A stretch of 64,000 nucleotides of DNA from Hyphomicrobiales bacterium (lineage in GTDB: Bacteria; Pseudomonadota; Alphaproteobacteria; Rhizobiales; JACESI01): contig JBDVXS010000103.1 in NCBI GenBank assembly GCA_039964305.1, forward strand, positions 281 to 64,280, written 5' to 3'. Position 1 is the first letter of the stretch. Each line of letters begins with the position of its first letter. Below the pieces are notes generated by a model. The model did no database searches. It saw nothing but the letters and a program-made list of their open reading frames with translations, and was not told the origin of the DNA. Below, in pieces: positions 26,190 through 54,781 of the stretch. The position numbers and the translations under genes are program-made.

Positions 26190-26365
26190 AATTGTTTCCC
26201 TGTTTAATATAGGAGGAATGCCAGCGCTTCGTGGCAAGAGTTTGACCGTGCATTACTATAAAAATCTAGCCTCTTTTGTTCGCATGGCATATTGTTCCGT
26301 GAATAAGGTCTTGTATCGTGCGTTCTGCGTGATATAGCGACATTAGCCAATTCGTTGGCTTGGTA

Positions 26366-26442
26366 GGGCGTGTAGCTCAGTTGGTTAGAGCCGACCGCTC
26401 ATAACGGTCTGGTCGGGGGTTCAAGTCCCTCCGCGCCTACCA
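26366..26442 (+). tRNA. tRNA with CAT anticodon, most likely tRNA-Ile2 (lysidine-modified); elongator Met is less likely
   Basis: Full cloverleaf: GGGCGTG acceptor, D-arm TAGCTCAGTTGGTTAGAGC, anticodon loop CTCATAA, GGTTCAAGTCC T-arm and encoded CCA. Lacks initiator features (C1:A72 mismatch, three consecutive G-C pairs in the anticodon stem). Confidence 0.93.
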
Positions 26443-26776
26443 CTTTAAAAACTAAACTCTGTTTTATCTGACTATCCTCAATCGATGCCATCCTAATTTC
26501 TCACGTTCCTTGGCCGTTACGGTGATGCAAGCATCATCTATTCGAAGGTGGTGCGGCGATAACCCTGAAAACACGTCAGCTGGGTGATCCAAAAACGGGA
26601 AGCCGTTCATAAGGACGATGTGGATTAGGAAGTAAAGTTGGAGGTGTAGGAGCCGTATTATAATCTTCACAGACCATACGGTGCATTCAATGGAAAAAAT
26701 TTATGACGCTCTCAAAGGAAAGCTTAAAGAACTAAAAATAATGTTTTGCCGATAACAGCGTTTGATAAGTAAAGGT

Positions 26777-27580
26777 CTATAATTCAGCGCCAAGCCGAAA
26801 CGAAATTTTCTTCGATATATCCTTGATGTTTTGAATAACCGTTGCTTCACCAATTTCTTCAATGGCATCTGTTGATAGGCTCACGGCAACGCCGGCAATT
26901 GGCTTGTTATTAGAGTTCAGTACAGTGACCCCATAACAGACCATACCCAGTTTGACCTGTTCACAATCAACTGAATGACCTTGAGCGCGAATGACGGCTA
27001 ATTCATCAATCAATGTATCCAGATCTTGAACGCTGTTGTCGGTAAGAGGTTTGGGGAAAGTCGTCCCGATGAGACGGCGCACGTCGCTTTCGGACATATA
27101 ACTCAAAAAAGATTTGCCAGTTGCAGTGAACACGGCAGGCAATCTCATCCCTATCCGAAAATCATAACCCACTGACAATTCCGAGTTCCGTGCCGCGATA
27201 TAAACGACTTCACTGCCCTCTAAGACGGACAACGTAATTGTAGCACCTGGTAAGCTACTACCTTCGTCCCAGATTGTGGCGAACTCTGTTGCGACGTCAG
27301 ATTCATAGGTGAACCGATTCGCCCATCGCATAATGTGAGGCCCTAATTGATAGGTCTGATCAGGCTTCTTTAGCAGCAGGTTTAGTTCAGTCAACGTTAC
27401 GCAAATTCCGTGGACGCTGCTCTTCGCAATTCCAATTTCCTCTGCAATTTCAGTGATATTGAGAGTTTTTTGTGACTTTGCAACAATGTCTAAAACGTTT
27501 GCGCCTTTAACAAGTGCTGGTACCAGTTTTGGTTTTTTATCTGGTTCCTGCACGCCCATTTTTCTCTTTATCCGATCCAC
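26777..27580 (-). CDS. attJ: IclR-family regulator, BlcR/AttJ-like (alternative start ATG 27559)
   Basis: VPALVKG...IAKSSVHG HTH, LGPHIMRWAN, EGSEVVYIAARNS and FRIGMRLPAVFTATGK closely parallel Agrobacterium BlcR as recalled. Divergent from an attM-like gene. Confidence 0.8.
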   Translation of the reverse strand: MDRIKRKMGVQEPDKKPKLVPALVKGANVLDIVAKSQKTLNITEIAEEIGIAKSSVHGICVTLTELNLLLKKPDQTYQLGPHIMRWANRFTYESDVATEFATIWDEGSSLPGATITLSVLEGSEVVYIAARNSELSVGYDFRIGMRLPAVFTATGKSFLSYMSESDVRRLIGTTFPKPLTDNSVQDLDTLIDELAVIRAQGHSVDCEQVKLGMVCYGVTVLNSNNKPIAGVAVSLSTDAIEEIGEATVIQNIKDISKKISFRLGAEL

Positions 27581-27644
27581 AAATTTTCTCTTTTTATGTC
27601 AGGTGATTGAAACTGGTTTTATCTCTATTTTTTAAAAACTGAGC

Positions 27645-27706
27645 TTGACTCTAACTCCCATAATGATCAGTATTCGACATATTGTAAAGCGTTCAATATA
27701 TGGAAC
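27645..27706 (+). promoter_or_regulatory. Putative operon promoter with IclR operator(s)
   Basis: TTGACT-N17-CAGTAT (27645-27673), followed by TTCGACATATTGTAA and the near-palindrome GTTCAATATATGGAAC (27691-27706). Confidence 0.55.
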
Positions 27707-27841
27707 AATTGTTTGGAGGAGAGCAGGCGTTGCAAACAAACAAAGATTTGAATCCTGCTTTGGTGGGCGGTAGCCTATGCTTAGTGGGTGCTGAGCTATT
27801 CAATTTCACTCTTCCAAGCGCAGCAGGAACTGGGACAGACG

Positions 27842-28225
27842 ATGACTGTTAGTGACTGGGCCGTAAAATTCAGTGAAGCCTCTGATCAAAATAAAACGAT
27901 CGCCGCCATGGCGCGTTATTTCACCTGCACCTACATGCTCGATATGGAGCACGAAAAGGTCATTGTCGAAATGATCGATGGTAAAGTCTACCGTATGAAC
28001 ATAACGCCCGGTGGCATGGATGCTTACGATTTTGCGCTACGCGCCAGTGCGCAAACATGGCGCGAATTTGCCCAGGCAGTTCCCAAGCCAATGTTCCATG
28101 GGATCTGGTCAGCGAGTTTTCGCAAAGATTTGACGATTGAAGGGAATACGCTTGTTCTTATGCAGAACCTGCGCAATTTCACGGTGCAGTTTGAACTGCT
28201 TCGCAAGGTAGGGGTGCCGGTATGA
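27842..28225 (+). CDS. Hypothetical protein, probable SCP2 (sterol carrier)-like fold
   Basis: 127 aa. The pattern YDFALRASAQTWREF...LTIEGNTLVLMQNL resembles SCP2-like domains. Confidence 0.55.
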   Translation: MTVSDWAVKFSEASDQNKTIAAMARYFTCTYMLDMEHEKVIVEMIDGKVYRMNITPGGMDAYDFALRASAQTWREFAQAVPKPMFHGIWSASFRKDLTIEGNTLVLMQNLRNFTVQFELLRKVGVPV

Positions 28226-28265
28226 CGTCAACCAATACTCTGATTAGTAAGGCAGTCTTAGCAAC

Positions 28266-29120
28266 ATGGTAAAACACTCACCAGTAACTGGACGGTATGT
28301 AACATTCGATGTCGATGGGTGTGAATACAAAGTTTTCTATCTTCAAAATGGTAGCGGAACACCGTTAGTCTGTCAGCACACTGCAGGTTGTCATAACCAT
28401 CAATGGCGAGACCTGCTCGAAGATGAAGAATTCACATCGCGCTACAACGTCATCGCCTATGACCTACCTCGACACGGCAAATCCGATCCGCCCCACAACA
28501 AGAAATGGTGGGAAGAGGAATATCGTTTAACAGCCGATCATTTTGTCAATTTCATTGTGAAGCTTTGTGACGCATTGGAACTCGACAATCCAATTTTCAT
28601 GGGTTCCTCGTTTGGGGGCAATGTAGCGCTTCAACTTGCGCTAAGACATCCAGATCGTTTTAGAGCTGTCATTCCAGTTGAAGCTGCCTCGCATGCTCCT
28701 GGTTTCTTCCTTGATCTATGGAGACATCCCCATGCAAACGCTGCACAAGTTTGTGCCAGTGGTGTTTGGGATCTCATGGCCCCTCAGAGTCCTGAAAAGG
28801 ATCGTTGGCTCACTTGGCATTATTATACCCAAGGGTCAGAGGCGTTTAAGGGCGACCTTTATTTTTACTCCGTTGACCACAACATCACGGATCAACTTTC
28901 CCAGATCGATACCAAAAGGTGTCCCGTCATTATGATGACAGGCACTTACGATTATTTGACGCCGCCTGAAGCGACTGAAGAAACGGCTCGGAATATTCCT
29001 GGTGGCATCTACATTGAAATGGAAGATATCGGGCACTTCCCGATGAGCGAAAACCATGCATTGTTTAGAGAGTATCTGCGCGAAGCCCTGAGAATTATTG
29101 AAGATCGCACTGATGCCTGA
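28266..29120 (+). CDS. Alpha/beta-fold hydrolase
   Basis: YDLPRHGKS, nucleophile elbow GSSFGG, acid (GTYD) and catalytic His in IGHFPMSEN. Confidence 0.9.
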   Translation: MVKHSPVTGRYVTFDVDGCEYKVFYLQNGSGTPLVCQHTAGCHNHQWRDLLEDEEFTSRYNVIAYDLPRHGKSDPPHNKKWWEEEYRLTADHFVNFIVKLCDALELDNPIFMGSSFGGNVALQLALRHPDRFRAVIPVEAASHAPGFFLDLWRHPHANAAQVCASGVWDLMAPQSPEKDRWLTWHYYTQGSEAFKGDLYFYSVDHNITDQLSQIDTKRCPVIMMTGTYDYLTPPEATEETARNIPGGIYIEMEDIGHFPMSENHALFREYLREALRIIEDRTDA

Positions 29121-29153
29121 TTACTTGGTAACTGAATATAATAAGAAAGCTTG

Positions 29154-30083
29154 ATGATGAAGATTCTTGAATTTAATGACCAAGGCCTACAAGTAGAGCG
29201 TGATTCAAACGCTGTGCGGCATATGGGTTCAAGTAGCCACCTAGCGCCTGCGCCTAATATCCGTGCTCGGACCCAACCGACATCAAACTCACCTTCTGAT
29301 ATTCAGTTGTTCATGTTCCAAACAGGAACACTTCGAACCAAAACTAAATATATCAAAATGAACCAAGGAGAGGAAGATTTCGAAATTCCAGTGCCGTGGT
29401 TCTTGATCAAGCACCCAAAGGGTAACGTTGTTATCGACGGTGGAAACGCTGTTGAGACTGCAATGGACAAACGCGGTCACTGGGGAGCTGTTGTTGATGC
29501 TTATGACCCAGTCATGAATGTCAAAGACAATTGCGTTGATCAATGTCGTTCAGTTGGTGTTGAGCCTGAAGATGTGAGCTATGTGATGCAATCGCATTTG
29601 CATCTCGATCATTCCGGTGCCATTGGCCGTTTTCGTAAGGCACAGCATATCGTTCAAAGAATTGAATATGATTATGCGTTTAACCCAGACTGGTTTTCTG
29701 CGGGTGCGTATATAAGAGCTGACTTTGATCGTCCGGGTCTTGATTGGAAGTTCTTGGGTGGTGAGTATACTGATAATTATGATCTCTATGGTGATGGCAC
29801 CATACGAATGATTTTCACGCCGGGTCATTCGCCTGGTCATCAGTCCTTTTTGATCACCCTTCCCAATACAGGGCCCGTGCTGCTTACGATTGATGCTGCC
29901 TACACCCTTGATCACTGGGAAGACAAAGCTCTTCCAGGTCTTGTATGTTCATCGGTAGATGCGGCTCGTTCTGTCGCAAAATTGCATAAAATTGCACAAG
30001 ATACCGGGGCTTTAGTCGTTACTGGCCATGATCCAGTGCATTGGAACACGTTTAGAAAAGCTCCACACAGTTTCTACGATTAA
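29154..30083 (+). CDS. attM: N-acyl-homoserine lactone/gamma-butyrolactone lactonase, AttM (BlcC) type (start uncertain)
   Basis: SHLHLDHSG (HxHxDH), TPGHSPGHQS, LTIDAAYTLDHW and TGHDP. N-terminal IKMNQG...EIPVPWFLI...VIDGGNA...RGHWG follows Agrobacterium AttM as recalled. Confidence 0.9.
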   Translation: MMKILEFNDQGLQVERDSNAVRHMGSSSHLAPAPNIRARTQPTSNSPSDIQLFMFQTGTLRTKTKYIKMNQGEEDFEIPVPWFLIKHPKGNVVIDGGNAVETAMDKRGHWGAVVDAYDPVMNVKDNCVDQCRSVGVEPEDVSYVMQSHLHLDHSGAIGRFRKAQHIVQRIEYDYAFNPDWFSAGAYIRADFDRPGLDWKFLGGEYTDNYDLYGDGTIRMIFTPGHSPGHQSFLITLPNTGPVLLTIDAAYTLDHWEDKALPGLVCSSVDAARSVAKLHKIAQDTGALVVTGHDPVHWNTFRKAPHSFYD

Positions 30084-30182
30084 GACCCTAAAGTGAGCCG
30101 GAGGAGCCTGGCTTGTGAAGCCTGTGCCGTAAATGGCGCAAGAAATACCAACCTAAAATTGACTAAAACTGAGGAGGAAGTA

Positions 30183-31352
30183 ATGAGAATTTTAAGAAAA
30201 TTAACGATGGCATTGAGCGGGTTAGCTCTGTGCGCGACTGGCGCGATAGCAGGAGGATTGGACGATATTGATCCAGAGGTGCGTGAGCGTCTTTATAATC
30301 CAGAAATGCTTGACCCAGCTCAGCCGATTGAAGCGAGCATTTACAAGGATTTTGTGGCTAAGAATCCGCCACCTTGGAAAATTGGATATGCAAGCTCATA
30401 TGCTGGCAACACTTGGCGTGCAGGTGCGATGTCGCAATTGCAAGACGTGATCATTCCTAAATGGAAAAAATTGGGCTTGATCTCTGAAGTTGTTGTGACC
30501 CAGTCAAACCTTAAAGATGCAACACAAATCCAACAAATGCGTCAACTTGTTGATCAAGGTGTCGATGCCGTCATCGTATGTTGCTCAAACCCAACTGCGC
30601 TCAACCAGACTGTTAAATATGCTTACGACAAGGGTGTTCCAACATTCTCACTCACTGGCTATTTGACATCAGAATATGCGGTTAATTCATCTGTAAACTA
30701 TCAGCTTGCAGGATTTGAAATCGGCAAATGGATGGCGAAGGAAATTGGCGGTAAAGGTAATGTGCTTGTTGTAGAGGGCATTCCTGGAACATCTGCTTCC
30801 GATAGTCAGGATCGCGGTGTTAAGGCTGGTCTGGCAACAGCAGAAGGCATTAATGTTGTTGGTTCAATCGCTGGCATGTGGACCGATCAGGTCGCTCAAG
30901 GTGAAGTGCAAAAATGGCTTTCAACACACCCAGGAAAACTAGACGGCGTTGTGGTTCAATCTGCCGCTGAAATGGGTGTATTGCGCGCGCTTGCTCAATC
31001 CGGTCGTGCTGACGTTCCAGTTGCAATCGGTGGTGAACTCGGTGCGTTGTGCCATTGGCGCAAAAACCCAGATTACATTTCTAGTGCGATCCAAACATGG
31101 CCGCCACAAGATGAGATGGAACTAATCTGGGACATCATGATGCGTACTTTGCAGGGTCAAGGTCCTAAAGTTCAATCTATCATGGTTGATCCTGTGACCG
31201 TAACTTTTGAAGATCTGAAAAATGTTATGGATGAAAGCTGCGATCCAAACACACCTAACTGGCTTCCAGTTGGTAAAGATCGTTGGGGTAGCTCTGCTTT
31301 CCTAGATGGCTTCTTCTACAAGCCTGCTGATCCAACAAAATACAAACGCTAA
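30183..31352 (+). CDS. ABC transporter periplasmic substrate-binding protein (sugar/CUT2 type)
   Basis: Signal peptide, QIQQMRQLVDQGVDAVIV and GKGNVLVVEGIPGTSAS. Strong GAGGAGG RBS. Confidence 0.9.
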   Translation: MRILRKLTMALSGLALCATGAIAGGLDDIDPEVRERLYNPEMLDPAQPIEASIYKDFVAKNPPPWKIGYASSYAGNTWRAGAMSQLQDVIIPKWKKLGLISEVVVTQSNLKDATQIQQMRQLVDQGVDAVIVCCSNPTALNQTVKYAYDKGVPTFSLTGYLTSEYAVNSSVNYQLAGFEIGKWMAKEIGGKGNVLVVEGIPGTSASDSQDRGVKAGLATAEGINVVGSIAGMWTDQVAQGEVQKWLSTHPGKLDGVVVQSAAEMGVLRALAQSGRADVPVAIGGELGALCHWRKNPDYISSAIQTWPPQDEMELIWDIMMRTLQGQGPKVQSIMVDPVTVTFEDLKNVMDESCDPNTPNWLPVGKDRWGSSAFLDGFFYKPADPTKYKR

Positions 31353-31363
31353 GTAAACGAAAA

Positions 31364-31390
31364 CCGGGCTGCCTGTGATGGGCAGTCCGG
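31364..31390 (+). other. Intercistronic stem-loop without a U-tract
   Basis: ccgggctgcct-gtgat-gggcagtccgg between the SBP and ATPase genes, a typical position for an mRNA-stabilising hairpin. Confidence 0.55.
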
Positions 31391-31408
31391 ATCGTATAAG
31401 GGTAAGTT

Positions 31409-33175
31409 TTGTCGCAATCTCAACCATCTCAGCCAGCTACATCCGTCGCGCAGAACACGATTTCTGTGGTCGATGTATACAAATTTTTTGGGCCGACACG
31501 CGCGCTCAATGGCTGTAGCTTCTCTGCACGGATGGGCGAAATACATGCCATCGTCGGCGGTAATGGTTGTGGTAAAAGCACAATGGCTAAGATCGTCTCT
31601 GGCGTATTACCCATTGATAAAGGACAAGTCTCCATCTTAGGAGAAACACCATCGACACCGGGTGAATCCCGAGCGATTGGTATCTCAACAGTTTACCAGG
31701 AAGTTCTTGTTGCCGACGAAAGTACAGTTGTCGATAACCTCTTCATGGGAACAGATGATCTGTTTTCTTCGACTTTACCATTCAATGAAAAAGTCCAGCG
31801 CGCTGCTAAAATGATGCGCGAATTGGCAGGGGAAGAAGTCGACCCCCATGCACTCGTAGGCACATTGCCACTTGGCATTAAACAATGGATTACTATCGGG
31901 CGAGGGCTCCTTCAAGTCCCCCGAATTCTCATTCTTGATGAATCATCAGCCGCTTTGGATTTTGATAGCACTGAACGGCTTTTTGATAAGATGCGAGAAC
32001 TAAGAGACGGTGGCACAACTGTTCTCATTGTGACGCACAGAATTGCAGAACTCATCCGCATATCAGACCGAGCGACCGTCCTGAGAGATGGCAAAGATGT
32101 TGGTGTTCTGGAGAAGGAAGAGATTACTGAAAAGAATTTGCTCGCTTTGATGACAGGCGAAGACCAAGACGACAATCATGCTGAATTTAAGGCCCCCATT
32201 CCAGTCGATGACAGCGTTGTCATGCAGGCTCACGGCCTTCAAATTTGGCCAGATGCTGAAAGCGTAGACTTCGAACTTCTAAAAGGTGAGATCGTAGGGA
32301 TCGCTGGTCTTGATGGCCAAGGACAAGATGAATTTGTGCGGGTTCTGGCTGGTGTGCAACTGGCAGAAAAAGGGCTTGTTTATTCATCCGACAATGCGGG
32401 GGTGTTTCATCCTATCCAGTCTCTTCGCGAAGCTGTGAAAGCTAAAATTGCCTATGTTTCTGGAGATCGGAAACGGGAAGGTATTTTCGCTTCACTAAGC
32501 ATCTTTGAAAACATGTCTATGCCACTTTATCGCGAGAAAACACGTGGTGGTTTTTTCGGGTTCATTGATTGGGTAAGCCTGAAAACAATTTTCACACGAG
32601 AGACTGAAAACTTACTTATTAAGTTTGGCCTTGCTGATGACAAGATCACGTCTCTTTCGGGTGGTAATCAGCAGAAAGTGCTTATTGGTCGTGGCTTCGC
32701 CATGCGACCTGATATTATCGTCTTGAATGACCCCGCGCGGGGCATCGATGTGGGGGCGAAGACTGAACTCTACAAACACCTAAGGACGTTTGCCGAATCT
32801 GGAAAATCTGTGATTTATTTATCTTCCGAATTGGAAGAATTTATCGGCTTCGCCACCCGCGTTATCGTTTTTCGAAACGGCAGTCCCTTTGATGCCTTTG
32901 CGGGGGAACAGGTTGAACAAAAACGTATTCTTGAAGCCATGTTCGGTCAAACAGATCGTCTTGGATTAAAGGGGCTTTCTTCTGAAGCCCTACAGCCGAA
33001 CTCGAGTGAAAACCCTCCTTTGCAGCCTCAAGATATTGAGAGCACAGACGTATCAAATCCAGATCAAGACAACGTTGTTTCATTTGCTACAGATGATACT
33101 GCAGCCACTAAACGACTAGACATCAAGATTGTCGAATTCGATGCTCACAAAAACAAAAAACGGTCAGCGCTATGA
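31409..33175 (+). CDS. Sugar-type ABC transporter ATP-binding protein (two fused NBDs)
   Basis: GGNGCGKS Walker A, LILDE, GDRKREG, LSGGNQQKV and DPARGIDVGAK. Confidence 0.92.
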   Translation: MSQSQPSQPATSVAQNTISVVDVYKFFGPTRALNGCSFSARMGEIHAIVGGNGCGKSTMAKIVSGVLPIDKGQVSILGETPSTPGESRAIGISTVYQEVLVADESTVVDNLFMGTDDLFSSTLPFNEKVQRAAKMMRELAGEEVDPHALVGTLPLGIKQWITIGRGLLQVPRILILDESSAALDFDSTERLFDKMRELRDGGTTVLIVTHRIAELIRISDRATVLRDGKDVGVLEKEEITEKNLLALMTGEDQDDNHAEFKAPIPVDDSVVMQAHGLQIWPDAESVDFELLKGEIVGIAGLDGQGQDEFVRVLAGVQLAEKGLVYSSDNAGVFHPIQSLREAVKAKIAYVSGDRKREGIFASLSIFENMSMPLYREKTRGGFFGFIDWVSLKTIFTRETENLLIKFGLADDKITSLSGGNQQKVLIGRGFAMRPDIIVLNDPARGIDVGAKTELYKHLRTFAESGKSVIYLSSELEEFIGFATRVIVFRNGSPFDAFAGEQVEQKRILEAMFGQTDRLGLKGLSSEALQPNSSENPPLQPQDIESTDVSNPDQDNVVSFATDDTAATKRLDIKIVEFDAHKNKKRSAL

Positions 33176-34584
33176 CCGATGTGACAGCAAGCACAATTCC
33201 AACTCAAGCTGAAAATGATGAAGTTAGCTCTGGCAGCGGAACAACGCCTTATTTGTTGATGCCAATTACCGTTCTGTTTGTGCTTTTGATCATTGCAGTC
33301 ATCAGATCTCCATCTCTCATGACAAGCTCAGGAATTGGCGCTGCAATTATTGTTTCAGCCCCTCTCATTCTTGCAACCTATGCTCTTATGACAAGCGTAA
33401 CGGCAGGCCGGGGCACTGTGGATTTAGCCATTGGCCCTCTAATCGGCTTCATCAATGTTTCTGTTATCCAGCTTACTGCCGCCGAGGTGATAGGGTCTCC
33501 AATCTCTGTTTTCATTTTTGCGATTGGCCTTGGCATTGCTTATCAAGTCTTGATGGCTGCGATTGTGATTTATGTACGGGTCCAACCAATAATCGTATCG
33601 CTCAGTGGCTTTCTAGCGCTATCAGGCATAAACCTTGTCATTCTGCCCCGACCTGGAGGCCTTGCACCTGAATGGATGCAAAGCTGGGGTGCAGGCATTG
33701 ATATTATTTCGCCTGTTTTGGTGATCCTTGTGGTGGCAACACTTGCATGGTTGCTTTTCACACAAACAGCTTTCTACACTCATTTGAGACTGATGGGATC
33801 AGATGAGAGGGCGGCCTATACCAGTGGCGTTCCAATCACGACCGTTCGTTTTGGCGCCCATGCGATTGCAGGCGTATTCGCCGGATTGTCAGCCATTACG
33901 TATACGGCTTTGATTAGCTCAGGAGATCCCAGCCAAGGAACGACCTACACACTCATTGCTGTAACAGCACTCGTACTAGGCGGCACTTCGCTCGCGGGCG
34001 GACGCGGCACGGTTATGGGGTCTTTATTTGGTGCGCTTAATCTATATTTGATTACCTATGTGCTTGCGACATTCAACTTTGGCGCTGTTCAAAGCTTTGT
34101 AACTGACCTTGCTTACGGCACAATCTTGGTTGTCTCTTTGCTGCTAACAATCGCTCTGCCGTTCATCCAACGGCACATCCGAAACTTCTCACCGTTACTC
34201 TATTTTGTTGTGCTGTCAGTTGTTGTCTTCGGTGTTATTTTGCATACGACATTTGATTACACGGCATTAGAGGCAGCGACAGATACGGCGAAGCAAGCAC
34301 TCCCTGCAATCAATTTTGCAGCGCCCCTTGAAGTGGTGCAACTGAGTGACAGTGACATTGAGTATAGCTCATTTGCACAACCGCTCATCTATGCAGCAAT
34401 TCTAATTATTGCGCTGCCAATTTTGTTGCGGGTGATTTTTTCGAACTCAGATTTTCGCAACATTGGACTTCTGGTCGCAATCTTCGTCACATCCATGCTG
34501 TTGATGTCAGGTTATTTTTTGACCCAAAATTCTGCTTCCTCCCAAGCACCATCCCTCCCAAGCTCCAATTCGGGAGCAAGCTAA
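33172..34584 (+). CDS. ABC transporter permease (RbsC-like) with C-terminal membrane extension
   Basis: VDLAIG, GSDERAAYTSGV and LVLGGTSLAGGRG. ATGA overlap with the ATPase gene. Confidence 0.88.
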   Translation: MTDVTASTIPTQAENDEVSSGSGTTPYLLMPITVLFVLLIIAVIRSPSLMTSSGIGAAIIVSAPLILATYALMTSVTAGRGTVDLAIGPLIGFINVSVIQLTAAEVIGSPISVFIFAIGLGIAYQVLMAAIVIYVRVQPIIVSLSGFLALSGINLVILPRPGGLAPEWMQSWGAGIDIISPVLVILVVATLAWLLFTQTAFYTHLRLMGSDERAAYTSGVPITTVRFGAHAIAGVFAGLSAITYTALISSGDPSQGTTYTLIAVTALVLGGTSLAGGRGTVMGSLFGALNLYLITYVLATFNFGAVQSFVTDLAYGTILVVSLLLTIALPFIQRHIRNFSPLLYFVVLSVVVFGVILHTTFDYTALEAATDTAKQALPAINFAAPLEVVQLSDSDIEYSSFAQPLIYAAILIIALPILLRVIFSNSDFRNIGLLVAIFVTSMLLMSGYFLTQNSASSQAPSLPSSNSGAS

Positions 34585-35964
34585 TTGAGTAATTCTGCAT
34601 CAACACATAAAACGGGCACTTTGCTAACACGCCTTATTGGTTTGGTTTTGGCACTAGGCATAACGGCGATCGGTGTGGTGGTTGGCTTGGTTCAAGGACA
34701 GCCTATCCAGCAAGTCATTTTGTTTGCTGTCGCAACCCTTGCTGGTTCGGCTTGGGCTTGGCAGTTTTTTGTCAAACAGTTTGATAGTCATGGCGACGAA
34801 AATCAGGAAACTGAGGGGCCAGGTGAACTTTACCAAGCATGGTTGAAGTATCGCTTAGGGTTTTTTGGATTTTTGATCTTAGCATTGTTATTTGTGACGC
34901 TTTCTCTGACCGTGGAAGGTTTCTTCAATATTTGGAACGTGATTTCAGCTCTCATCTTGTTGCTGATCATTGTTTTGACGATGACGGTTGGGAAATTTGT
35001 TTCTGAAAACAAAAGCGCATTTATCGGCTTGATGGTGTTGATCGGTCTGTTTTCAATTGGAGCGATGAACATCGAAGGGTTTTCATCAACTAACAATATC
35101 AAATCGATGTTGCTCTTTGCGTCATTTCTTGGCTTGGCATGTATCGGTCAAACACTTGTATCGCTGGTTGGTGGTCTCGATCTTTCAATCCCATTCGTTA
35201 TTGGTTCAGCCAATGTGGGGATGTTGTATCTCATCAGCCTCGGCGTTCCACCGTGGTTAGCACTCGTAATCACGTTGTTCGTTGGAATGCTTATTGGCTT
35301 GATAAATGGTTTTCTTAGCTTCCGCCTTCAGGGCCAAGCGCTCATTATGACGCTGGGAACTGGGTTCGCAGTTTCTGGGGGCATCCAAATAATCACGTCG
35401 ATTGGAACGGCCTATGGCGGCAATGTTTTTGCTACAGTTCCAAGCTGGCTTAGCAACTTAGCAGCCTTAAATGGATCATTTTTTGGAATTCCCATTCCAC
35501 CAGTAATCGCCATTTGGATCATCATCGCGGTAGTGCTGATCGTTGGTATGCGGCATACCGTTTTTGGCCGCTATCTATATGCACTCGGTGTAAACCGTAC
35601 GTCTGCAAAACGCGTGTCGATTTCAGAACGCATCTATTGGGTTTCCGTCTACACGCTCAGCGGATTTTTCTCAGCGCTAACGGGCATCTTTCTCCTTGGT
35701 TGGAGCGGCGGCGGTTTCATTGGCGTTGGGGATAGTTATTTGTTTATGACCCTTGCTGCCGTGGTTGTTGGTGGGACGTCCTTATTAGGTGGCATCGGTG
35801 GATACGGCTTCACTGTGATTGGCGTTTTGGTTCTTCAAGTCCTGACATCATTTTTGGTCGGCATCGGACTGAACCACGAATGGCAGCAATTTATCTTCGG
35901 ATTACTAATCCTCCCAATGGTCGCACTTTATGCGCGTTCCCCGCACATCAGAACCCAAATTTAG
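34585..35964 (+). CDS. ABC transporter permease (RbsC-like) with N-terminal membrane extension
   Basis: GQTLVSLVGGLDLS, FGRYLYALGVN and AAVVVGGTSLLGGIG. Confidence 0.88.
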   Translation: MSNSASTHKTGTLLTRLIGLVLALGITAIGVVVGLVQGQPIQQVILFAVATLAGSAWAWQFFVKQFDSHGDENQETEGPGELYQAWLKYRLGFFGFLILALLFVTLSLTVEGFFNIWNVISALILLLIIVLTMTVGKFVSENKSAFIGLMVLIGLFSIGAMNIEGFSSTNNIKSMLLFASFLGLACIGQTLVSLVGGLDLSIPFVIGSANVGMLYLISLGVPPWLALVITLFVGMLIGLINGFLSFRLQGQALIMTLGTGFAVSGGIQIITSIGTAYGGNVFATVPSWLSNLAALNGSFFGIPIPPVIAIWIIIAVVLIVGMRHTVFGRYLYALGVNRTSAKRVSISERIYWVSVYTLSGFFSALTGIFLLGWSGGGFIGVGDSYLFMTLAAVVVGGTSLLGGIGGYGFTVIGVLVLQVLTSFLVGIGLNHEWQQFIFGLLILPMVALYARSPHIRTQI

Positions 35965-36016
35965 AAAGCGACAAGCAATTGACACAAGAACAAGCCAAAT
36001 CAAGACAGGGGAAAAA

Positions 36017-36724
36017 ATGACCCATCCGGTTATGCAAACAATAGATCTTACAGGTGCGAGTTACTCTGCAGCCCTGTTGGGAATGGTAGCAACAACTGTA
36101 TTGCTTCTCATCGGCTCCGCTTGGGTGCGTGGTGGTTGGAAATTACCGGTCACTCTATGCGGTCTGGCAACTCTTGTTGGGGTGTTCGCACTCTATGAAT
36201 CGAAAGCTGTTTGGCTTTCAAGTTCACAGGTTCCACTGGTCTATCACTATGTAGGCTGGATCATATCCATGCCCCTACAGGTTATCGCACTCTTCTTCTT
36301 TGCCCGTCAGATGGGGCCAGTATCTTCTGCCCTGTTTTGGCGCTTATTGGTTGTCACTGTTTTGATGGTGCTGTTTCGTTATTTGGGAGAAGCTGGGTTC
36401 GTTCACGCAACGTTGGCATTCCTTATCGGCATTGTTTTCTGGCTATACATTCTCGGCGAGATATTTTTCGGACAAATGGAAGAGGCTGTAACAAAAAGCC
36501 TCAACGCGCCAGTACAGCGTGGGTATTTCTGGCTGCGGTTGATTGTGACTGTTGGTTGGGCCGTTTACCCATTGGCCAATTTCATCATCAGTTTTAGTGG
36601 TCATGTTGATACTGGCGGCATGAGCGTCGCTTACAACCTGACAGAATTTTTAAACAGAATAACGTTCGGGATCATCATTCTCTCAACGGCTGTTTTAGCC
36701 TCGAAAGGATCATCCGATGAATAA
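36017..36724 (+). CDS. Proteorhodopsin-family (type 1) opsin lacking the retinal-binding lysine
   Basis: 235 aa with seven hydrophobic helices co-linear with proteorhodopsin (PR): WKLPVTLCGL, PLVYHYVGWIISMPLQ (PR: PTVFRYIDWLLTVPL), YLGEAG, GWAVYP and YNLTEFLNRITFG (PR: YNLADFVNKILFG). Confidence 0.88.
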   Translation: MTHPVMQTIDLTGASYSAALLGMVATTVLLLIGSAWVRGGWKLPVTLCGLATLVGVFALYESKAVWLSSSQVPLVYHYVGWIISMPLQVIALFFFARQMGPVSSALFWRLLVVTVLMVLFRYLGEAGFVHATLAFLIGIVFWLYILGEIFFGQMEEAVTKSLNAPVQRGYFWLRLIVTVGWAVYPLANFIISFSGHVDTGGMSVAYNLTEFLNRITFGIIILSTAVLASKGSSDE

Positions 36725-36784
36725 TCTAATTCTTCTCAACCTCGAGCAAATCAATACACTGCCCTCTAATATGGAGTTACCAAA

Positions 36785-38482
36785 ATGAACGGTGCCAATA
36801 TCATTGCAATTATTATTCTGGCGGCGATCGTTATTGCGGTTCTTGCCTACCTTCTTCACTGGCTGTACCGCCACTCAACAAAGGATGTATCCTTTGTGCG
36901 AACCGGTTTTCTTGGTGAAAAAATCGTCATGGGTGGTGGCGCGTTAGTCCTACCAATCGTCCACGACCTTACCGAAGTAAACATGAATACACTGCGTCTG
37001 GAAGTAACAAGATCGCGGCAGAAATCATTGATTACTAAGGATCGGATGCGTATCGAGTTGGAAGTTGAATTCTACGTGCGTGTGATACCGACAATTGAAG
37101 CTGTCTCAACAGCCGCACGTACCCTTGGCAATAGAACAACAAATCCAGAAAGCTTGCGCGATCTCATTCAAGGCCGCTTTGTCGATGCTATGGGCGCCGT
37201 TGCTGCGTCGATGGCTATGGAGGAAATACACGAGAACCGGTCTGCCTTTATCAAGAAAATTAAAGAGGAAGTGGCCGACAACCTCACGCTCAATGGGCTT
37301 GAACTAGAAACCATCTCTCTAACAACATTGGATCAAGCTGATATTTCGCTTTTCAATCCTTCAAATGCGTTTGACGCGGAAGGTCTTACACGTCTGACAG
37401 AAGAGATCGAGAAGCGTAAGAAAAAGCGTAATGACATTGAACAAGATACGATGATCGCGGTTCGCAAGAAGAACCTTGAAGCTGAGAAGATGGCTTTGGA
37501 TATCGAACGGGAAAGTGAATACGCGAAATTGGCCGAAGATAGCGAAGTGGCCATTCGTAGAGCTGAGCAAAAAGCTGAAGTAGAGCTCATGAACGCGGCA
37601 AAAGAACGCGAAATTGAAATTGCCCGTTTGAAGGAACGCGAAGAGGTGGAAACCAGCCGCATCCAAATGGAGCAATCACTTGAAACAATCGAAATCAAGC
37701 GACAGGAAAATCTGGCGCTAGAGGAACAAGCACGCGAAATTGCAATTTCAGAAAAATCTAAAAAACGTTCCCTTGCACAATCTGAAGCGGAAAAAGCCCG
37801 TGGTAAAATGCTGGAAGAGAGCGAGAAGGCGCAAACAGTGCGTGATACCGAAATTGCAAATCGACGCAAACAGGTTGAGCTGATCGAAGCTGCAAAAGAA
37901 GCCGAACGCGGTGCAATTGTTACCAAGGTGAATGCTGAGGCTGAAAAAACCGCAGCCAAAGATCTGGCTGAAGCGGATGGAATTGCCGTTAAAGCTCTCA
38001 AAGAACGCCTTGCAATTGAAGCCGACGGGAAACGGGCGCTCAATGAAGCTGAAAACCTGCGCACGGACGCTAGTCGCAAATCTGCTCTCCATCAAAAATT
38101 GGTCGAGAACCTTCCTGAAATCATCCGCGAGAGCGTCAAACCAATGGAGAATATCGATGAAATCAAAATTCTTCATGTTGAAGGCCTTCCAGGTTTAGCA
38201 GCAGGCAATTCAGATGGCTCTTCAGCTGGTGATGGGCAAGGCAAATCAGGTGATGGAAACCTTGCCGATCAAGTCGTGAATTCCGCATTGCGATATCGCT
38301 CGCAGGCTCCCTTTGTCGATACATTGCTAGGAGAGATCGGAATGAGCGGAGAAAACGTGCATCGTATGGAAGGTCTGCAAGACTTGTCTAAGATCGTTTA
38401 CACCGAGCCTGGCGCTGCTGAAACATCCAGTAAGCCCAAAGCTGCTTCGCCCAAAACAGCGGCAACAAAGCCCAAAAAATAA
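36785..38482 (+). CDS. Flotillin/SPFH-family protein (YqiK-like)
   Basis: N-terminal TM, FVRTG...GGALVLPIVH, LITKDRMR SPFH core, FNPSNAFDAEGLT, long AEA-rich coiled coil, and C-terminal LPEIIRESVKPMENIDEIKIL and SALRYRSQAP. Confidence 0.92.
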   Translation: MNGANIIAIIILAAIVIAVLAYLLHWLYRHSTKDVSFVRTGFLGEKIVMGGGALVLPIVHDLTEVNMNTLRLEVTRSRQKSLITKDRMRIELEVEFYVRVIPTIEAVSTAARTLGNRTTNPESLRDLIQGRFVDAMGAVAASMAMEEIHENRSAFIKKIKEEVADNLTLNGLELETISLTTLDQADISLFNPSNAFDAEGLTRLTEEIEKRKKKRNDIEQDTMIAVRKKNLEAEKMALDIERESEYAKLAEDSEVAIRRAEQKAEVELMNAAKEREIEIARLKEREEVETSRIQMEQSLETIEIKRQENLALEEQAREIAISEKSKKRSLAQSEAEKARGKMLEESEKAQTVRDTEIANRRKQVELIEAAKEAERGAIVTKVNAEAEKTAAKDLAEADGIAVKALKERLAIEADGKRALNEAENLRTDASRKSALHQKLVENLPEIIRESVKPMENIDEIKILHVEGLPGLAAGNSDGSSAGDGQGKSGDGNLADQVVNSALRYRSQAPFVDTLLGEIGMSGENVHRMEGLQDLSKIVYTEPGAAETSSKPKAASPKTAATKPKK

Positions 38483-38547
38483 GAACGCAGTCAGTGATAG
38501 CTTTGGCGCTATCACGCCAGTCTTGATAGAATTTAAAGGAGGCTTTC

Positions 38548-38973
38548 TTGAGCCTTACAACAAAGATTGAACGAGAAGTTGTCGTGATTAGCAGCTGGAC
38601 TGTGTTCGGAATTTTAGGACTTGGCTTCCTTCTTGAAGGTGGTGTCCGTGATAACTTCTTGATCGGTGTTTTTGGAATAGGTGTCTTGGTGGTGGGCTTC
38701 TTGTGCCACCTTGTCGCGAATTATGTTTTTAAGCAGAGCTTTTCCAAGGGTGAAGTGGCGCTGGGTTTAGGCGTGTTTGTTACGTCAACAATTGTATTCA
38801 TTGTTGGTTGGCTTGCGGGTTCGCTCTCTGAAACAAGTTTTTTCATTGGGTTGACCGCACTCTCAATTATCGTTGCTGGGTTCATTGTTAATCTGACCAC
38901 CCGGTATGGGGTTAGTGGTGCGTTTCATAAATTCGACGTCTCTGCAAAGTCTCATTCGAGGCATCGAAAATGA
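38548..38973 (+). CDS. Small integral membrane protein (about 4 TM)
   Basis: AAGGAGG RBS before TTG, four hydrophobic segments and ATGA overlap with the symporter gene. Confidence 0.75.
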   Translation: MSLTTKIEREVVVISSWTVFGILGLGFLLEGGVRDNFLIGVFGIGVLVVGFLCHLVANYVFKQSFSKGEVALGLGVFVTSTIVFIVGWLAGSLSETSFFIGLTALSIIVAGFIVNLTTRYGVSGAFHKFDVSAKSHSRHRK

Positions 38974-40925
38974 GCCTGCTTGATCCTGTAATATGGCTAT
39001 TTCTTCTCTTGTTGTTTTATGGATTGATTTCTCTTTATTGGGCCCGATCAGCGTCCCTTTACAATCAATCAGAAGCTGATTTTTTCACAGCAGGCGGATC
39101 TCTTGCACCTTGGATGATGGCGCTTGGCCTTACAGGGGCCAGTATTTCTGCATGGATCATGCTGGGCTTTCCAAAGGCCATCGCCAATCAAGGTCTAGGT
39201 TTTGCAGTTCTTGCCCTTGCCGGAGTCGTCATCCCCCTGACAGGCGTGCTCTTCTTAAAGCCGCAATGGGCCATCGCCAAACGTCATGGGTATTCTAGTC
39301 AGGGTGAGATGTTGAATGCCTATTTCGGCGGCAAAGCAATCGGCATTCTTTCTGCAGGGGTTGCGTTGTTGATTGCTATCGGGTTCTCAGGAATCCAACT
39401 TCGTGCTGTCTCTCAATTGCTGGCTAACCTCTCTGGCAGTGCAGATCTATTTCCTCAATATGTCTTGGGAATAGCGTTTCTGGTTGCGGCCTACCTTATC
39501 ATCGGTGGGATGAGAGCTGTTGGATACCTCGGCGTATTGCAGACCGTTTTAATTGGCCTCACTCTAGCTGGATTAGGGCTTTTTGTTCTCATCACGCAGG
39601 GCGGGTTAGAACCAATCAGCCAAGCGTTAGGTGTTCTTGCTCAAAATCCAGATTCAATTTCTAAGGGATTGTTTGAGATTGCTGGGGTCATCCAATTTAC
39701 TGCCGGACATGGGGTTGACGATTCAATAACAAGTCAGTGGACCGCGATGATGATATTCAGCACCGCGCTTGCATTGATGGGTATCCAAGCAAGTCCAATG
39801 ATCACCCAATTGGTCATTGCTACACGCAATTCAAAAGGAATTGCAGCTGGACAGACATGGGTATTTGCAGGCTTTTTTGGCGCTCTTTTGGTCGGAGCCG
39901 TTGTTTTAATTGGTGTCACGGGAATTGGAAAAGGCGGAAATCCAATTGCGGACCTACTGGCAATCCTCTCAGAAAGTTCTCCTTGGTTCATGGCCATTGG
40001 TGCACTGGGATTTCTCGCCGCATTGCAACTCGTGATGGGTTTGAGTGTTCTCACCGCTGCAAACGCTGTGATCAAAGATGTCTACAAACCGTTTTTCCAT
40101 AAAGGCCTTTCAAGCAAGGACGAGTTGTTATTTGCCAGAGTCCTAATGGGACTTCTTATTCTCGCTGCAGCCTTGTTGGCTCTCCTAGGGCCATTTGTCC
40201 TGTCAGCGCTCAGTTCTGTAGCCCTACCAGCAGCCTTCCAATTATGGCCAGCCTTACTCGGTTTATGTTGGGTTAAATTTATAACAAGACAAGCTGTCTT
40301 AGCGGGCGCGGTGCTCGGACTGTTTGCTGTTTTTGTTACGGATACAGTCGGCATTCGCATGTTAGAATTCGTAGGCCTTGATTTGCCTTGGGGGCGGTGG
40401 CCTTGGACTATCCATTCTGCTGGATGGGGTATCTTCTTCAATGTGTTGGCTGTTCTTGTAATCTCCGCCATCACACAAGGGCGAGGGCATGCAAATATTG
40501 CTCCAGATATACGCAGCTTTTTGCGAACTTACATGAAACCTAAAGTTCAAAGCCGTGCACTAAAGCCTACTGCTTGGTCTGCGGTTCTTGCTTGGTTTTT
40601 CTTGGCTATTGGTCCCGGTGCTGTTCTTGGTAACACCGCATTCGGCAAGCCTTCTGAAGGCTTTGAAGTATGGATGATTGGCGTTCCATCTATTTGGGCG
40701 TGGACAATTCTATTTTGGGTTTTGGGTGTGTTTCTGGTTTGGTTCCTTTCATACAAAATGGAACTTGCATCAGAATCTGACGTTCAATTTACCCCAATCG
40801 AAGCCCTTCCCACGGCCACTATTCGAGACACTAAAATTCAAAAAGAAGAAGTGTTGCGTTTGGCATGGACGATTTCTGCAATCGCAACAATCATAACATT
40901 AACAACCTGGACATTTGGCTCGTGA
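38970..40925 (+). CDS. Sodium:solute symporter (SSS) family transporter
   Basis: DFFTAGGSL...ASISAWIMLGFP, YLIIGGMRAVGYLGVLQ and more than 13 TM segments. Confidence 0.82.
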   Translation: MSLLDPVIWLFLLLLFYGLISLYWARSASLYNQSEADFFTAGGSLAPWMMALGLTGASISAWIMLGFPKAIANQGLGFAVLALAGVVIPLTGVLFLKPQWAIAKRHGYSSQGEMLNAYFGGKAIGILSAGVALLIAIGFSGIQLRAVSQLLANLSGSADLFPQYVLGIAFLVAAYLIIGGMRAVGYLGVLQTVLIGLTLAGLGLFVLITQGGLEPISQALGVLAQNPDSISKGLFEIAGVIQFTAGHGVDDSITSQWTAMMIFSTALALMGIQASPMITQLVIATRNSKGIAAGQTWVFAGFFGALLVGAVVLIGVTGIGKGGNPIADLLAILSESSPWFMAIGALGFLAALQLVMGLSVLTAANAVIKDVYKPFFHKGLSSKDELLFARVLMGLLILAAALLALLGPFVLSALSSVALPAAFQLWPALLGLCWVKFITRQAVLAGAVLGLFAVFVTDTVGIRMLEFVGLDLPWGRWPWTIHSAGWGIFFNVLAVLVISAITQGRGHANIAPDIRSFLRTYMKPKVQSRALKPTAWSAVLAWFFLAIGPGAVLGNTAFGKPSEGFEVWMIGVPSIWAWTILFWVLGVFLVWFLSYKMELASESDVQFTPIEALPTATIRDTKIQKEEVLRLAWTISAIATIITLTTWTFGS

Positions 40926-40942
40926 GCCAAGAAAGAGACCCT

Positions 40943-42100
40943 ATGCCCCCCTTTATTTTCAATACAACAGCCAGCGTTAGATTTGGCGCAGGTTTGATGT
41001 CGCAGCTTGGCGAAATGGTAAAGGCCAGTATTGGGACACGTATTTTGCTGGTGACAGACCCTGGCATGATGACAACTGGTATTGTCGACAAAGCTTTGGA
41101 CATATTAAAAGCCGCTGGTGTTGATGTGGCGTTGTTCAAAGATGTTGAATCTGATCCCTCAGAGCAAGTCGTGCTCGCATGCGCCCAAGCGGCCATCGAC
41201 CATGGATCACAGGGGGTCGTTGGACTTGGTGGTGGATCATCCTTGGATGTTGCGAAACTGGCGGCCTTGCTTGCAACGGGCAATGAAAAGCTTACGGATG
41301 CTTATGGTGTCGGCAATGCAAAGGGACCACGCTTGCCGTTAATTCTTGTGCCAACAACCTCTGGTACAGGCTCGGAAGTGACGCCTATTTCGATTGTTAC
41401 CACGGGCACCAATGAAAAAATGGGTGTCGTCTCACCCGTGATTATTCCAGATATAGCCTTGCTTGACCCAGAACTAACTTTGGGACTGCCATCACACATC
41501 ACAGCGGCAACAGGCATTGATGCCATGGTACATGCGATTGAGGCCTACGCCTCTGCTAGTGCCAACAATAATCCAATCTCTCGCATGTTGGCAGAAAAAG
41601 CACTTCAGTTGATGGGGCCTTCGCTTTTGGCGGTTGTTAATGATGGATCGGCTATTGAAAGCCGTTCCGCTATGTTGTTGGGATCAATGTTGGCAGGCCA
41701 AGCGTTTGCCAACTCACCGGTCGCGGCCGTTCATGCATTAGCCTATCCACTTGGTGGCCATTTCCATATTCCGCATGGGCTTTCTAATGCTCTCGTGTTG
41801 CCCCACGTTTTGCGCTTCAATTGCGTAGTCGCTCCGCAACCTTATGCGGAATTGGCACCGTTTGCTTTTCCTGAATTGGCAAAATTAGAGGGCCAAGAAC
41901 GCGCAAGCGCCTTTTGCGATTCTTTGGCTGACCTCTCGCAAAAATGTGGCCTTCAGCAAAGTCTCAAAGAAATGGGCATCCCAAGAGAAACCCTTCCCAA
42001 GCTTGCAAGCGATGCGATGAACCAAACGCGTCTTCTCGTAAACAATCCGCGTGAAGTTAAACTAGCCGACGCATTGGCAATCTATGAAGCTGCCTACTAA
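40943..42100 (+). CDS. attL: Iron-containing alcohol dehydrogenase, AttL/BlcB (4-hydroxybutyrate dehydrogenase)-like
   Basis: GLGGGSSLD, PTTSGTGSEVT, GIDAMVHAIE, AFANSPVAAVHALAYPLGGHFHIPHGLSN and QTRLLVNNP. Confidence 0.82.
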   Translation: MPPFIFNTTASVRFGAGLMSQLGEMVKASIGTRILLVTDPGMMTTGIVDKALDILKAAGVDVALFKDVESDPSEQVVLACAQAAIDHGSQGVVGLGGGSSLDVAKLAALLATGNEKLTDAYGVGNAKGPRLPLILVPTTSGTGSEVTPISIVTTGTNEKMGVVSPVIIPDIALLDPELTLGLPSHITAATGIDAMVHAIEAYASASANNNPISRMLAEKALQLMGPSLLAVVNDGSAIESRSAMLLGSMLAGQAFANSPVAAVHALAYPLGGHFHIPHGLSNALVLPHVLRFNCVVAPQPYAELAPFAFPELAKLEGQERASAFCDSLADLSQKCGLQQSLKEMGIPRETLPKLASDAMNQTRLLVNNPREVKLADALAIYEAAY

Positions 42101-42113
42101 TTCAGGCCCTATG

Positions 42114-42140
42114 AAAGAGCGTTAAATGCCGCTCTTTTTT
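42114..42140 (+). terminator. Rho-independent terminator closing the accessory operon
   Basis: aaagagcg-ttaaatgc-cgctcttttttt. Confidence 0.8.
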
Positions 42141-42360
42141 ACTAATCGTTTTTAAGAGGAAGGTGGAGGCTGTCGCTGAAACGCGGGTCGCCTTGTGCTA
42201 GTTCTATTTTCCTCCACGAGACGATCTTCCCAAAATTGAGTGGTTCCTCATGACTATGGTACACCTATAAGATATCGTGTTGATCAGGTGTTGGGGCATC
42301 TTCATGGGTGAAGGTAATCACGCCACCACGATACGTCTATTGATAGGGGAGTGAGGCTAC

Positions 42361-43212: not shown

Positions 43213-43451
43213 CGCTGACAGAAATTGTTCTTGGTGACAGTTCTCGATGGTGCGTTGATATGAGGTTTTCAAGAGGTACTTGATATAAACTATTGAACTT
43301 AAGAATAAATCTAGGATGTAGTCAGTATTTTTTAAATACTGGCAAGTTTGACGCCTAATAGTTGGTATTGAGTTTTTCAATGAATTAGGGGTTTGTTAGC
43401 CATCTTGATGCTATTTTCTTGGGAGCTGGGTTTTTTGTGGGTGTATTGAGT

Positions 43452-53192: not shown

Positions 53193-53331
53193 CAGAAGTA
53201 ACGATCAAAAATAACGGTGTATTACACATTGTTGCTGTAGTAAAAATTCAAAAAATATGTAAATTGACGTGGTATTTCTCTTTCTTATTCAGAGAATATG
53301 ATTCTTGTCGTGGGCGACCTAGAATAGGTGT

Positions 53332-54693: not shown

Positions 54694-54781
54694 TCTCTAA
54701 GTTTTATTCCATTTTACATGAGTAAATTCCGTTAGGGTAAGTAAACTCTTAACCGCTCTGCGCTATCTTAATCTTGAGTTT

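Follow-up and report, generated by a model that had tools for sequence, protein, structure and literature searches.

The window analysed in this study is a 64,000-nucleotide stretch of contig JBDVXS010000103.1 from a Hyphomicrobiales bacterium (assembly GCA_039964305.1), and the gene in question encodes an opsin and lies directly in front of a flotillin gene within a mobile island (Table 1). An earlier note, made from the sequence alone, had described an opsin ending 60 nt before a YqiK-like flotillin, followed by a protein with four transmembrane helices, and this order was found as described. All genes between positions 27788 and 42100 were located on one strand, behind a divergent IclR-family regulator gene. 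An alternative in-frame ATG of the opsin at position 35930 overlaps the permease gene, and the start at 36017 was favoured because homologues are mostly 231–237 aa long. The host genome (G000; 3.33 Mb, 48.5% GC, 98.55% complete, 163 contigs) is that of an alphaproteobacterium, and its size and GC content together with nearest named homologues mostly from Rhizobiales and Rhodobacterales make the earlier suggestion of a non-streamlined Rhizobiales-like host a fair one.

A lysine-less flotillin-associated rhodopsin in a mobile island

The opsin showed the seven-helix fold of the proteorhodopsin family, with a flotillin gene directly downstream on the same strand and with the gene cluster known from flotillin-associated rhodopsins (FArhodopsins, FARs). 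The FAR of Pseudothioglobus (PsFAR; PDB 9r21) was its top PDB match by sequence (E 2.3e-48), above the proteorhodopsins, and also the top match by fold (model pLDDT 90; TM-score 0.94, rmsd 1.5 Å, 35% identity). Compared to PsFAR, K213 was found to be replaced by R214, D79 by G80, R76 by H77, T83 by S84, H84 by M85, E120 by R121 and D209 by E210. The window opsin thus has Arg214 at the position of the Schiff-base lysine that binds retinal, Gly80 at the counter-ion and His77 at the helix C arginine, and the two residues that plug the pocket in PsFAR, His84 and Glu120, correspond to Met85 and Arg121. These changes would therefore turn the charge of the pocket from acidic to basic.

Where proton-pumping proteorhodopsins have Lys216, Arg82 and a DTE motif (bacteriorhodopsin numbering), the window opsin has Arg, His and G-S-A. 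It likewise differs from the marine lysine-keeping FARs of the PsFAR type in having Arg214 instead of Lys and G-S-A instead of a DTT, DTL or DNI motif, and Met85 takes the place of their His or aromatic plug (PsFAR position 84). Arg214 is among the replacements of the helix G lysine (Gln, Thr, Leu or Arg) known from lysine-less FARs. The earlier note was silent on the arginine at the retinal-lysine position and on the lost pump residues. Since the Schiff base needs the missing lysine, the protein cannot be a light-driven pump and is predicted not to bind retinal. The window opsin is assigned to the lysine-less branch of the already described FArhodopsins, and is neither of the marine lysine-keeping type nor a pump.

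An alignment of the window opsin with 118 of 120 listed homologues (an identical entry and one fragment were left out) showed Lys at position 214 in none of the 119 sequences and Arg in 110, Arg121 in all 119, and Gly instead of the counter-ion Asp in 118; 35 columns were invariant. A comparison with the copy in a genome of the same genus (G003) revealed 23 silent codon differences and a single replacing one, the lowest replacing share among 13 island genes. The opsin is thus shown to be under purifying selection and not decaying. That the gene is merely being carried along by a mobile catabolic island while it decays is scarcely credible: all photochemical residues have been lost and the island is patchy and mobile, as such a passenger would have it, but the excess of silent codons, the invariant columns and the retention of the gene in every related cluster speak against decay.

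A quick tree was built from 88 opsins of the fetched loci, with 13 loci omitted as duplicates or short contigs. In this tree, 52 flotillin-adjacent opsins, including five SAR11 FARs, were found on one branch apart from the pump proteorhodopsins (Shimodaira–Hasegawa-like approximate likelihood ratio test, SH-aLRT, 98), and the window opsin fell inside this group. Together with PsFAR as top match and the grouping of its flotillin with SAR11 FAR flotillins (99/97, see below), this bears out the earlier view of the opsin as a relative of the flotillin-associated rhodopsins. The 45 lysine-less opsins formed one branch (100) within the flotillin-adjacent group. At the position of the lysine they carry Arg (30), Leu (11), Gln (3) or Glu (1), and Arg121 was present in all 45, indicating a pocket arginine gained in this clade.

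Some single loci deserve mention. Two genomes, G088 (L037/L029) and G090 (L038/L031), contain two different FAR clusters each, and in both genomes the lysine is replaced by Gln in one cluster and by Leu in the other. On a 4-kb contig (G021:C362:3386-4024; L084/L109), an opsin of the FAR branch that keeps the lysine was found beside a flotillin frame of only ~150 codons. Besides, the single-contig genome G054 (5.3 Mb; same order), which has several flotillin-type genes, no other rhodopsin match and no blh, contains a lysine-keeping PsFAR-like opsin (His84, Glu120, D-T-L) with a flotillin and FAR-cluster genes (G054:C1:787999-788631; L085/L107-L108). A relative with 40% identity on an 872-bp contig titled Paenibacillus (STGF01000099.1; L059) is likely contamination and was left out of the tree. 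No opsin relatives were found among the viral contigs searched.

The island of ~15.9 kb that contains the opsin is a recently moving element. The empty site was found to be present in G003 and G004, and one contig of run X5 joins position 26446 to 42340 of the window. In G003, a copy of the island is integrated at another site and shows 95% DNA identity, as against 84–86% for core genes of the two genomes, and no rhodopsin matches were found in four of the five other members of the genus. In a macroalgae metagenome (run X8), 12 short contigs covered 15 of 30 bins of window positions 26000–43500 at a depth of ~2, and eight of them were at least 99% alike, which gives a weak hint, from one study, of an algal-surface habitat. 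A scan for promoters and terminators did not yield more sites than shuffled sequences (14 vs. 22; 26 vs. 19.5), and two RNA runs gave three and one poor reads near the tRNA only, which says nothing on expression.

Two further features of the window lie outside the island. Immediately after the island and a CitE-like gene, positions 43419–58401 encode a 3257-aa cadherin/Ig-repeat protein, an outer-membrane efflux protein, an ABC (ATP-binding cassette) exporter and HlyD, a gene set predicted to specify a giant adhesin secreted by a type I system. Positions 5693–6562 encode a carbonic anhydrase of the delta class (Pfam CA_like, E 2e-78), which is known mainly from marine algae.

Table 1. Features of the FAR island and its border in the window.
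Feature	Position	Strand	Remarks
tRNA-Met	26366..26442	+	ARAGORN; island starts just behind
FAR island, ~15.9 kb, mobile	26447..42339	.	Empty-site comparisons; no integrase recognised inside
IclR-family regulator, divergent	26777..27580	-	Pfam IclR_C and HTH_IclR; BlcR/AttJ-like position; family membership only
Small SCP2-like protein	27788..28225	+	No Pfam match; 64-68% identity to gene behind SAR11 flotillin
Alpha/beta hydrolase	28266..29120	+	80-81% identity to SAR11 FAR-cluster gene
AttM/BlcC-family metallo-lactonase	29151..30083	+	NCBIfam NF045700, 439.9 bits (cut-off 390); PDB 9kho, E 1.7e-114
ABC importer substrate-binding protein, sugar/AI-2 type fold	30093..31352	+	Pfam Peripla_BP_4
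ABC importer ATPase	31409..33175	+	
ABC permease 1	33172..34584	+	Pfam BPD_transp_2
ABC permease 2, directly upstream of opsin	34585..35964	+	
Lysine-less FArhodopsin	36017..36724	+	235 aa; Pfam Bac_rhodopsin PF01036, E 2.8e-19
YqiK-like flotillin (SPFH2), opsin-linked clade	36785..38482	+	565 aa; Band_7 and Flot domains
Conserved four-helix membrane protein, no known family	38548..38973	+	141 aa; stop overlaps symporter start
Sodium:solute symporter (SSF)	38970..40925	+	Pfam SSF
Iron-type alcohol dehydrogenase	40865..42100	+	AttL/BlcB-like role inferred; start probably 40943

Flotillin lineage and the gene upstream

In the earlier note, the opsin was thought to occupy the slot normally held by NfeD/YqiJ, the usual flotillin partner with an OB (oligonucleotide/oligosaccharide-binding) fold, and no such gene was recognised at the locus. 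The latter observation holds: the YqiJ_OB profile gave no match in the whole host genome (E. coli served as positive control), a profile of 16 YqiJ proteins matched neither the window nor the host genome, and the single NfeD match of the genome is located on another contig.

For the position itself, the SPFH part of the second flotillin of the host was compared to 301 genomes of the order, 85 of which gave matches, and 70 of the 122 listed flotillin places were examined (the best 30 and 40 chosen further down the list). Three genes were found to recur directly upstream of flotillins, namely YqiJ, a phosphoenolpyruvate (PEP)-hydrolase-like TIM barrel and the opsin. YqiJ was confirmed by Pfam in 16 of 16 candidates (214–259 aa), and a 17th, short one was detected by the YqiJ profile. 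In flotillin trees (a quick one with 87 rows and a careful one with 41 of those rows, rooted at the midpoint only), the opsin-linked flotillins, SAR11 included, formed a single group (99/97). The flotillins linked to the TIM barrel, a soluble protein, were the sister of this group (97/92), and all YqiJ-linked flotillins fell beyond another branch (96/95). YqiJ was found neither in any opsin-linked locus nor in four 19-kb stretches of the TIM-barrel class. If the linkage to YqiJ is ancestral, as argued for YqiJ/NfeD in PMC2636767, its loss most likely preceded the arrival of the opsin, because the sister flotillins have a TIM barrel and no YqiJ.

Thus, the claim of a shared slot stands as far as position is concerned, since related flotillins carry YqiJ at the same place, while direct replacement of YqiJ by the opsin is not supported by the trees. 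It appears quite unlikely that the opsin truly takes over the function of YqiJ/NfeD, serving the flotillin as the NfeD-type partner serves YqiK or FloT. The two share the upstream position and a similar length, no examined flotillin locus carries both of them, and an NfeD-type gene is the usual operon partner of SPFH2 flotillins (PMC2636767). On the other hand, the sister clade does with a soluble protein upstream and has neither YqiJ nor opsin, the host has two flotillins and no YqiJ, the opsin has no OB fold, and 17 genomes with SPFH2 but no NfeD2 were reported in the same paper.

The second flotillin of the host (L104; G000:C37:2-2866) is 950 aa long and lies at the start of its contig. Behind it, two SRPBCC-like genes, a molybdenum hydroxylase set, a MoxR-like ATPase, an amidohydrolase and a lactonase-like gene were recognised from their translations. 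Relatives of L104 follow an ABC transporter, UPF0261 and the PEP-hydrolase-like TIM barrel, and this YqiJ-less class is common in the order.

The four-helix membrane protein behind the window flotillin had to be considered as a hidden NfeD, a candidate that was ruled out. Its model (pLDDT 90.6) showed four helices and no strand, where NfeD/YqiJ have a five-stranded OB fold. It belongs to no Pfam family, none of its 40 members gave an NfeD or YqiJ Pfam match, and the YqiJ profile did not match it either. Structure searches yielded only generic helix-pair matches (Z < 9), no solved relative, Atlas matches to unnamed clusters only and no Foldseek match at E 0.001.

Cluster conservation, pump rhodopsins and proposed function

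Among the best 80 of at least 599 matches obtained by scanning species genomes with the opsin, 41 were FAR loci, 38 were SAR11 pump proteorhodopsins and one was on a short contig. The 41 loci were from genomes of 2.6–9 Mb, mostly alphaproteobacterial, including marine metagenome-assembled genomes and cultured strains (e.g., Roseovarius litoreus DSM 28249, Rhizobium aquaticum DSM 29780 and Tistlia consotensis USBA 355). Both the flotillin directly behind the opsin and permease 2 were present in 41/41 loci, and the adjacency of opsin and flotillin is therefore not due to chance; it even persists in the rearranged clusters of SAR11 and G054. The four-helix gene and the symporter were each present in 40 loci (one was cut by a contig end), the hydrolase in 36, and the SCP2-like gene and the binding protein in 35 each. 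A close lactonase (at least 65% identity) was found in 26 loci and a distant one in three, three loci were cut, and nine had none. Succinate-semialdehyde dehydrogenase (SSADH) at 60% identity or more was present in 13 of the 41 loci. The opsin appears to be tied more to uptake than to the lactonase, since the transport genes are constant and the enzymes vary. In three loci (L014, L019 and L027), a zinc-type alcohol dehydrogenase takes the place of the iron-type enzyme behind the symporter, a hint that it is the reaction step, more than the particular gene, that counts. The four-helix gene was seen with lysine-less opsins only (the 40 loci above as well as G016 and G050). Neither the G054 cluster nor the SAR11 loci, behind their flotillin, were found to have it, and its acquisition may thus fall on the branch where Arg121 arose.

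In the host genome, one rhodopsin match and no blh were found, with no second rhodopsin; blh was detected in pump-bearing G100 and G009. A search for lycopene cyclase, which is a weak test, gave short N-terminal matches to the flavin adenine dinucleotide (FAD) motif only and no full-length gene in the host. The 39 genomes behind the FAR loci contained one rhodopsin (37 genomes) or two FARs (2 genomes), and none contained a non-FAR rhodopsin; two had blh matches, one partial and one with a stop. In the 301-genome sample of the order, 29 genomes had a rhodopsin, which was flotillin-adjacent in 14 (12 by fetched loci or the window, two by coordinates). Thirteen of these 14 FAR carriers, the host included, had no other rhodopsin and no blh. 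The exception, G646, has two more rhodopsins and blh. With a non-FAR rhodopsin in 16 of 301 genomes, 0.7 overlaps with a FAR were expected by chance and one was seen. The two genome sets partly overlap, related genomes within them are not independent, and the completeness of the 39 genomes is not given.

These counts bear on the proposal of Haro-Moreno et al. (2023; PMC10308929) that FARs complement the proton-pumping proteorhodopsin in dim light, which in the hosts of lysine-less FARs could not be tested there. A pump paralogue was always found in marine SAR11, HIMB59 and Pseudothioglobus hosts in that study, and G646 would fit such a role. The marine screen, however, picked genomes with two rhodopsins, and here a partner rhodopsin was lacking in the host, in 39/39 genomes picked by their opsin and in 13/14 FAR carriers of the order sample, the only co-occurrence being at about chance level. 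Even the lysine-keeping PsFAR-like gene of the single-contig genome G054 stands alone. The dim-light idea does not hold for the lysine-less FAR clade, and a role of the window opsin in tuning or assisting a pump is very improbable. That most carriers in the order have neither a pump rhodopsin nor blh also argues against the dim-light idea as a general explanation.

The catabolic context, proposed earlier as a functional clue, proved to be real, with genes for a lactonase, an iron-type alcohol dehydrogenase, an importer and a symporter in the island. Cautiously, we lean towards the opsin being a light-independent membrane partner of the flotillin, which would likely gather the importer and the symporter of a predicted island for lactone uptake and breakdown; opsin–flotillin binding, the scaffold role and the substrate are inferred. 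Under this reading, the IclR regulator would switch on one transcript from the SCP2-like gene through the alcohol dehydrogenase gene. The ABC importer and the symporter would take in a lactone or its open acid, the AttM lactonase would open the ring and the alcohol dehydrogenase would oxidise the 4-hydroxy acid, after which SSADH could pass succinate to the tricarboxylic acid cycle, as in Agrobacterium blcABC. By analogy to PsFAR, the opsin would form a pentamer, and it may serve as in-membrane anchor or client of the flotillin, its former retinal pocket being filled by R121 and R214 and possibly holding a carboxylate. The flotillin lineage with which it became associated was by then probably without YqiJ.

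Several results weigh against a flotillin partner in lactone uptake. In the congruence test proposed earlier, opsin distances tracked those of the flotillin (r 0.93), but the flotillin did no better than permease 2 (0.95) or the ATPase (0.94), and its partial correlation (0.11) was below that of permease 2 and the hydrolase (0.36 for both); it is adjacency, unlike tree congruence, that marks the flotillin as a special neighbour of the opsin. The opsin tree carried a long-branch warning and left PsFAR out, and the surface of PsFAR was described as lacking an obvious adaptation to flotillin (Kovalev et al.; bioRxiv 10.1101/2025.04.29.651185). Co-transcription of the opsin, flotillin and transporter genes is predicted from their spacing. 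As to the substrate, the lactonase is outside the fixed core, given the nine loci with none within the fetched stretch; two annotated loci of this kind carry LysR regulators as well as CoA-transferase-like and acyl-CoA dehydrogenase-like genes. The enzymes vary among loci, and the true substrate may therefore differ. Besides, the alcohol dehydrogenase scored 244.9 bits against a cut-off of 500 bits for 4-hydroxybutyrate dehydrogenase and passed no equivalog cut-off, and SSADH was not found within the island of the window, the host gene being located on another contig (C85).

The rebuilt pocket allows another reading, in which the opsin is a chemical sensor or a small-anion conduit. Its cationic pocket would bind a pathway carboxylate, which could be 4-hydroxybutyrate, an acyl-homoserine or a fatty acid, and the opsin would thereby gate transport or flotillin assembly. 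We consider this rather unlikely. Gly at the counter-ion (118/119), Arg at the lysine position (110/119), the new and invariant Arg121 and Met85 in place of the aromatic or His plug of FARs would suit such a site, and retinal-free proteoopsin was reported to bind decanoate in the same pocket via the lysine (PMC11322631). However, Arg214 is dispensable in the clade, being replaced by Leu, Gln or Glu in 15 of the 45 opsins, the arginines may do no more than block the pocket, like H84 and E120 of PsFAR, and no transducer gene was recognised in the island. An extension of this reading to all lysine-less FARs as chemical receptors is unlikely in our view: loss of the lysine and of the counter-ion together with the pocket arginine would have created a carboxylate site, and the opsin, with the clade-specific four-helix protein, would signal a product of lactone breakdown to a flotillin cage that assembles or gates importers. 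If true, FARs would be chemosensory regulators of transport unlinked to light, SAR11 included.

Finally, the opsin might act in the flotillin domain as a light-independent phospholipid scramblase or membrane conditioner. A proteorhodopsin was reported to scramble lipids in liposomes and to aid E. coli in the dark (PMC10730872), and the SCP2-like gene of most loci is of a lipid-carrier type, but scrambling would leave the rebuilt inner pocket and the fixed tie to one ABC importer unexplained, and we regard it as decidedly improbable. Overall, the locus points to solute uptake, with lactones as first candidate substrate.

Comparison with known systems

The question of what FARs do concerns some of the ocean's most abundant bacteria. 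All known FAR hosts were stated to be uncultivated (bioRxiv 10.1101/2025.04.29.651185), and relatives in cultured, non-streamlined strains make FAR function testable by experiment. The family, its lysine-less form and the cluster genes are already in print (PMC10308929). Added here are hosts without a pump, a blcRABC-like gene set, the pocket arginine in all 45 lysine-less opsins and the cultured carriers. A search of the open-access literature found no work that connects FARs with lactone breakdown or with Rhizobiales-type hosts lacking a pump, and the main text of PMC10308929 mentions no lactonase, butyrolactone or YqiJ, with NfeD only in the title of a reference.

The window locus is most similar to the lysine-less 'freshwater' FARs described in PMC10308929, in which a proteorhodopsin-family opsin with Gln, Thr, Leu or Arg instead of Lys lies directly before a flotillin, in a cluster with SCP2-like, alpha/beta hydrolase, ABC importer, SSF, iron-type alcohol dehydrogenase and lactonase genes; among the rows of Table S4 of that paper compared here, most show the same helix D arginine. 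Those FARs are on short contigs of unknown taxa, for which the presence of a pump rhodopsin could not be decided in that study, whereas the hosts here mostly have no other rhodopsin. The marine FARs of the same paper all keep the lysine. Its Table S2 lists for the SAR11 cluster the same hydrolase, SCP2-like (labelled as SCP2 sterol-binding fold), lactonase, iron-type alcohol dehydrogenase, symporter and ABC genes; in contrast, the DMFase and oxoprolinase genes of SAR11 are absent from the window island, which adds the four-helix gene and the IclR regulator. PsFAR (bioRxiv 10.1101/2025.04.29.651185) resembles the window opsin in its fold, in the neighbouring flotillin and in lacking retinal, as is predicted for the window opsin, but keeps K213, D79 and R76, with a pocket blocked by H84 and E120, where the window opsin has R214, G80, H77, M85 and R121. 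Its host also has a pump paralogue, and none was found in the host of the window.

In yqiJ-yqiK of E. coli and yuaF-floT of B. subtilis (PMC2636767), an SPFH2 flotillin likewise has a membrane-protein gene directly upstream, and close relatives of the window flotillin (50–54% identity in the SPFH part) carry YqiJ at this place. Compared to both systems, the window locus has no OB-fold partner, and its flotillin falls in a branch that lacks YqiJ and occurs in operons for transport and catabolism.

Agrobacterium BlcR is an IclR-type regulator and BlcB an iron-type alcohol dehydrogenase. The blcR-blcABC system (attJ-attKLM; PMC5924552), which breaks gamma-butyrolactone down through 4-hydroxybutyrate and succinic semialdehyde and cleaves acyl-homoserine lactones as well, shares with the island a regulator, an AttM-family lactonase and an alcohol dehydrogenase. 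The likeness extends to SSADH in the 13 related loci mentioned above, while in the host of the window this gene is outside the island. The island is described here as blc-like, by predicted activity, and is not filed as blcABC. Compared to the blc operon, it adds an ABC importer, a symporter, a hydrolase, an SCP2-like gene, the opsin, the flotillin and the four-helix gene.

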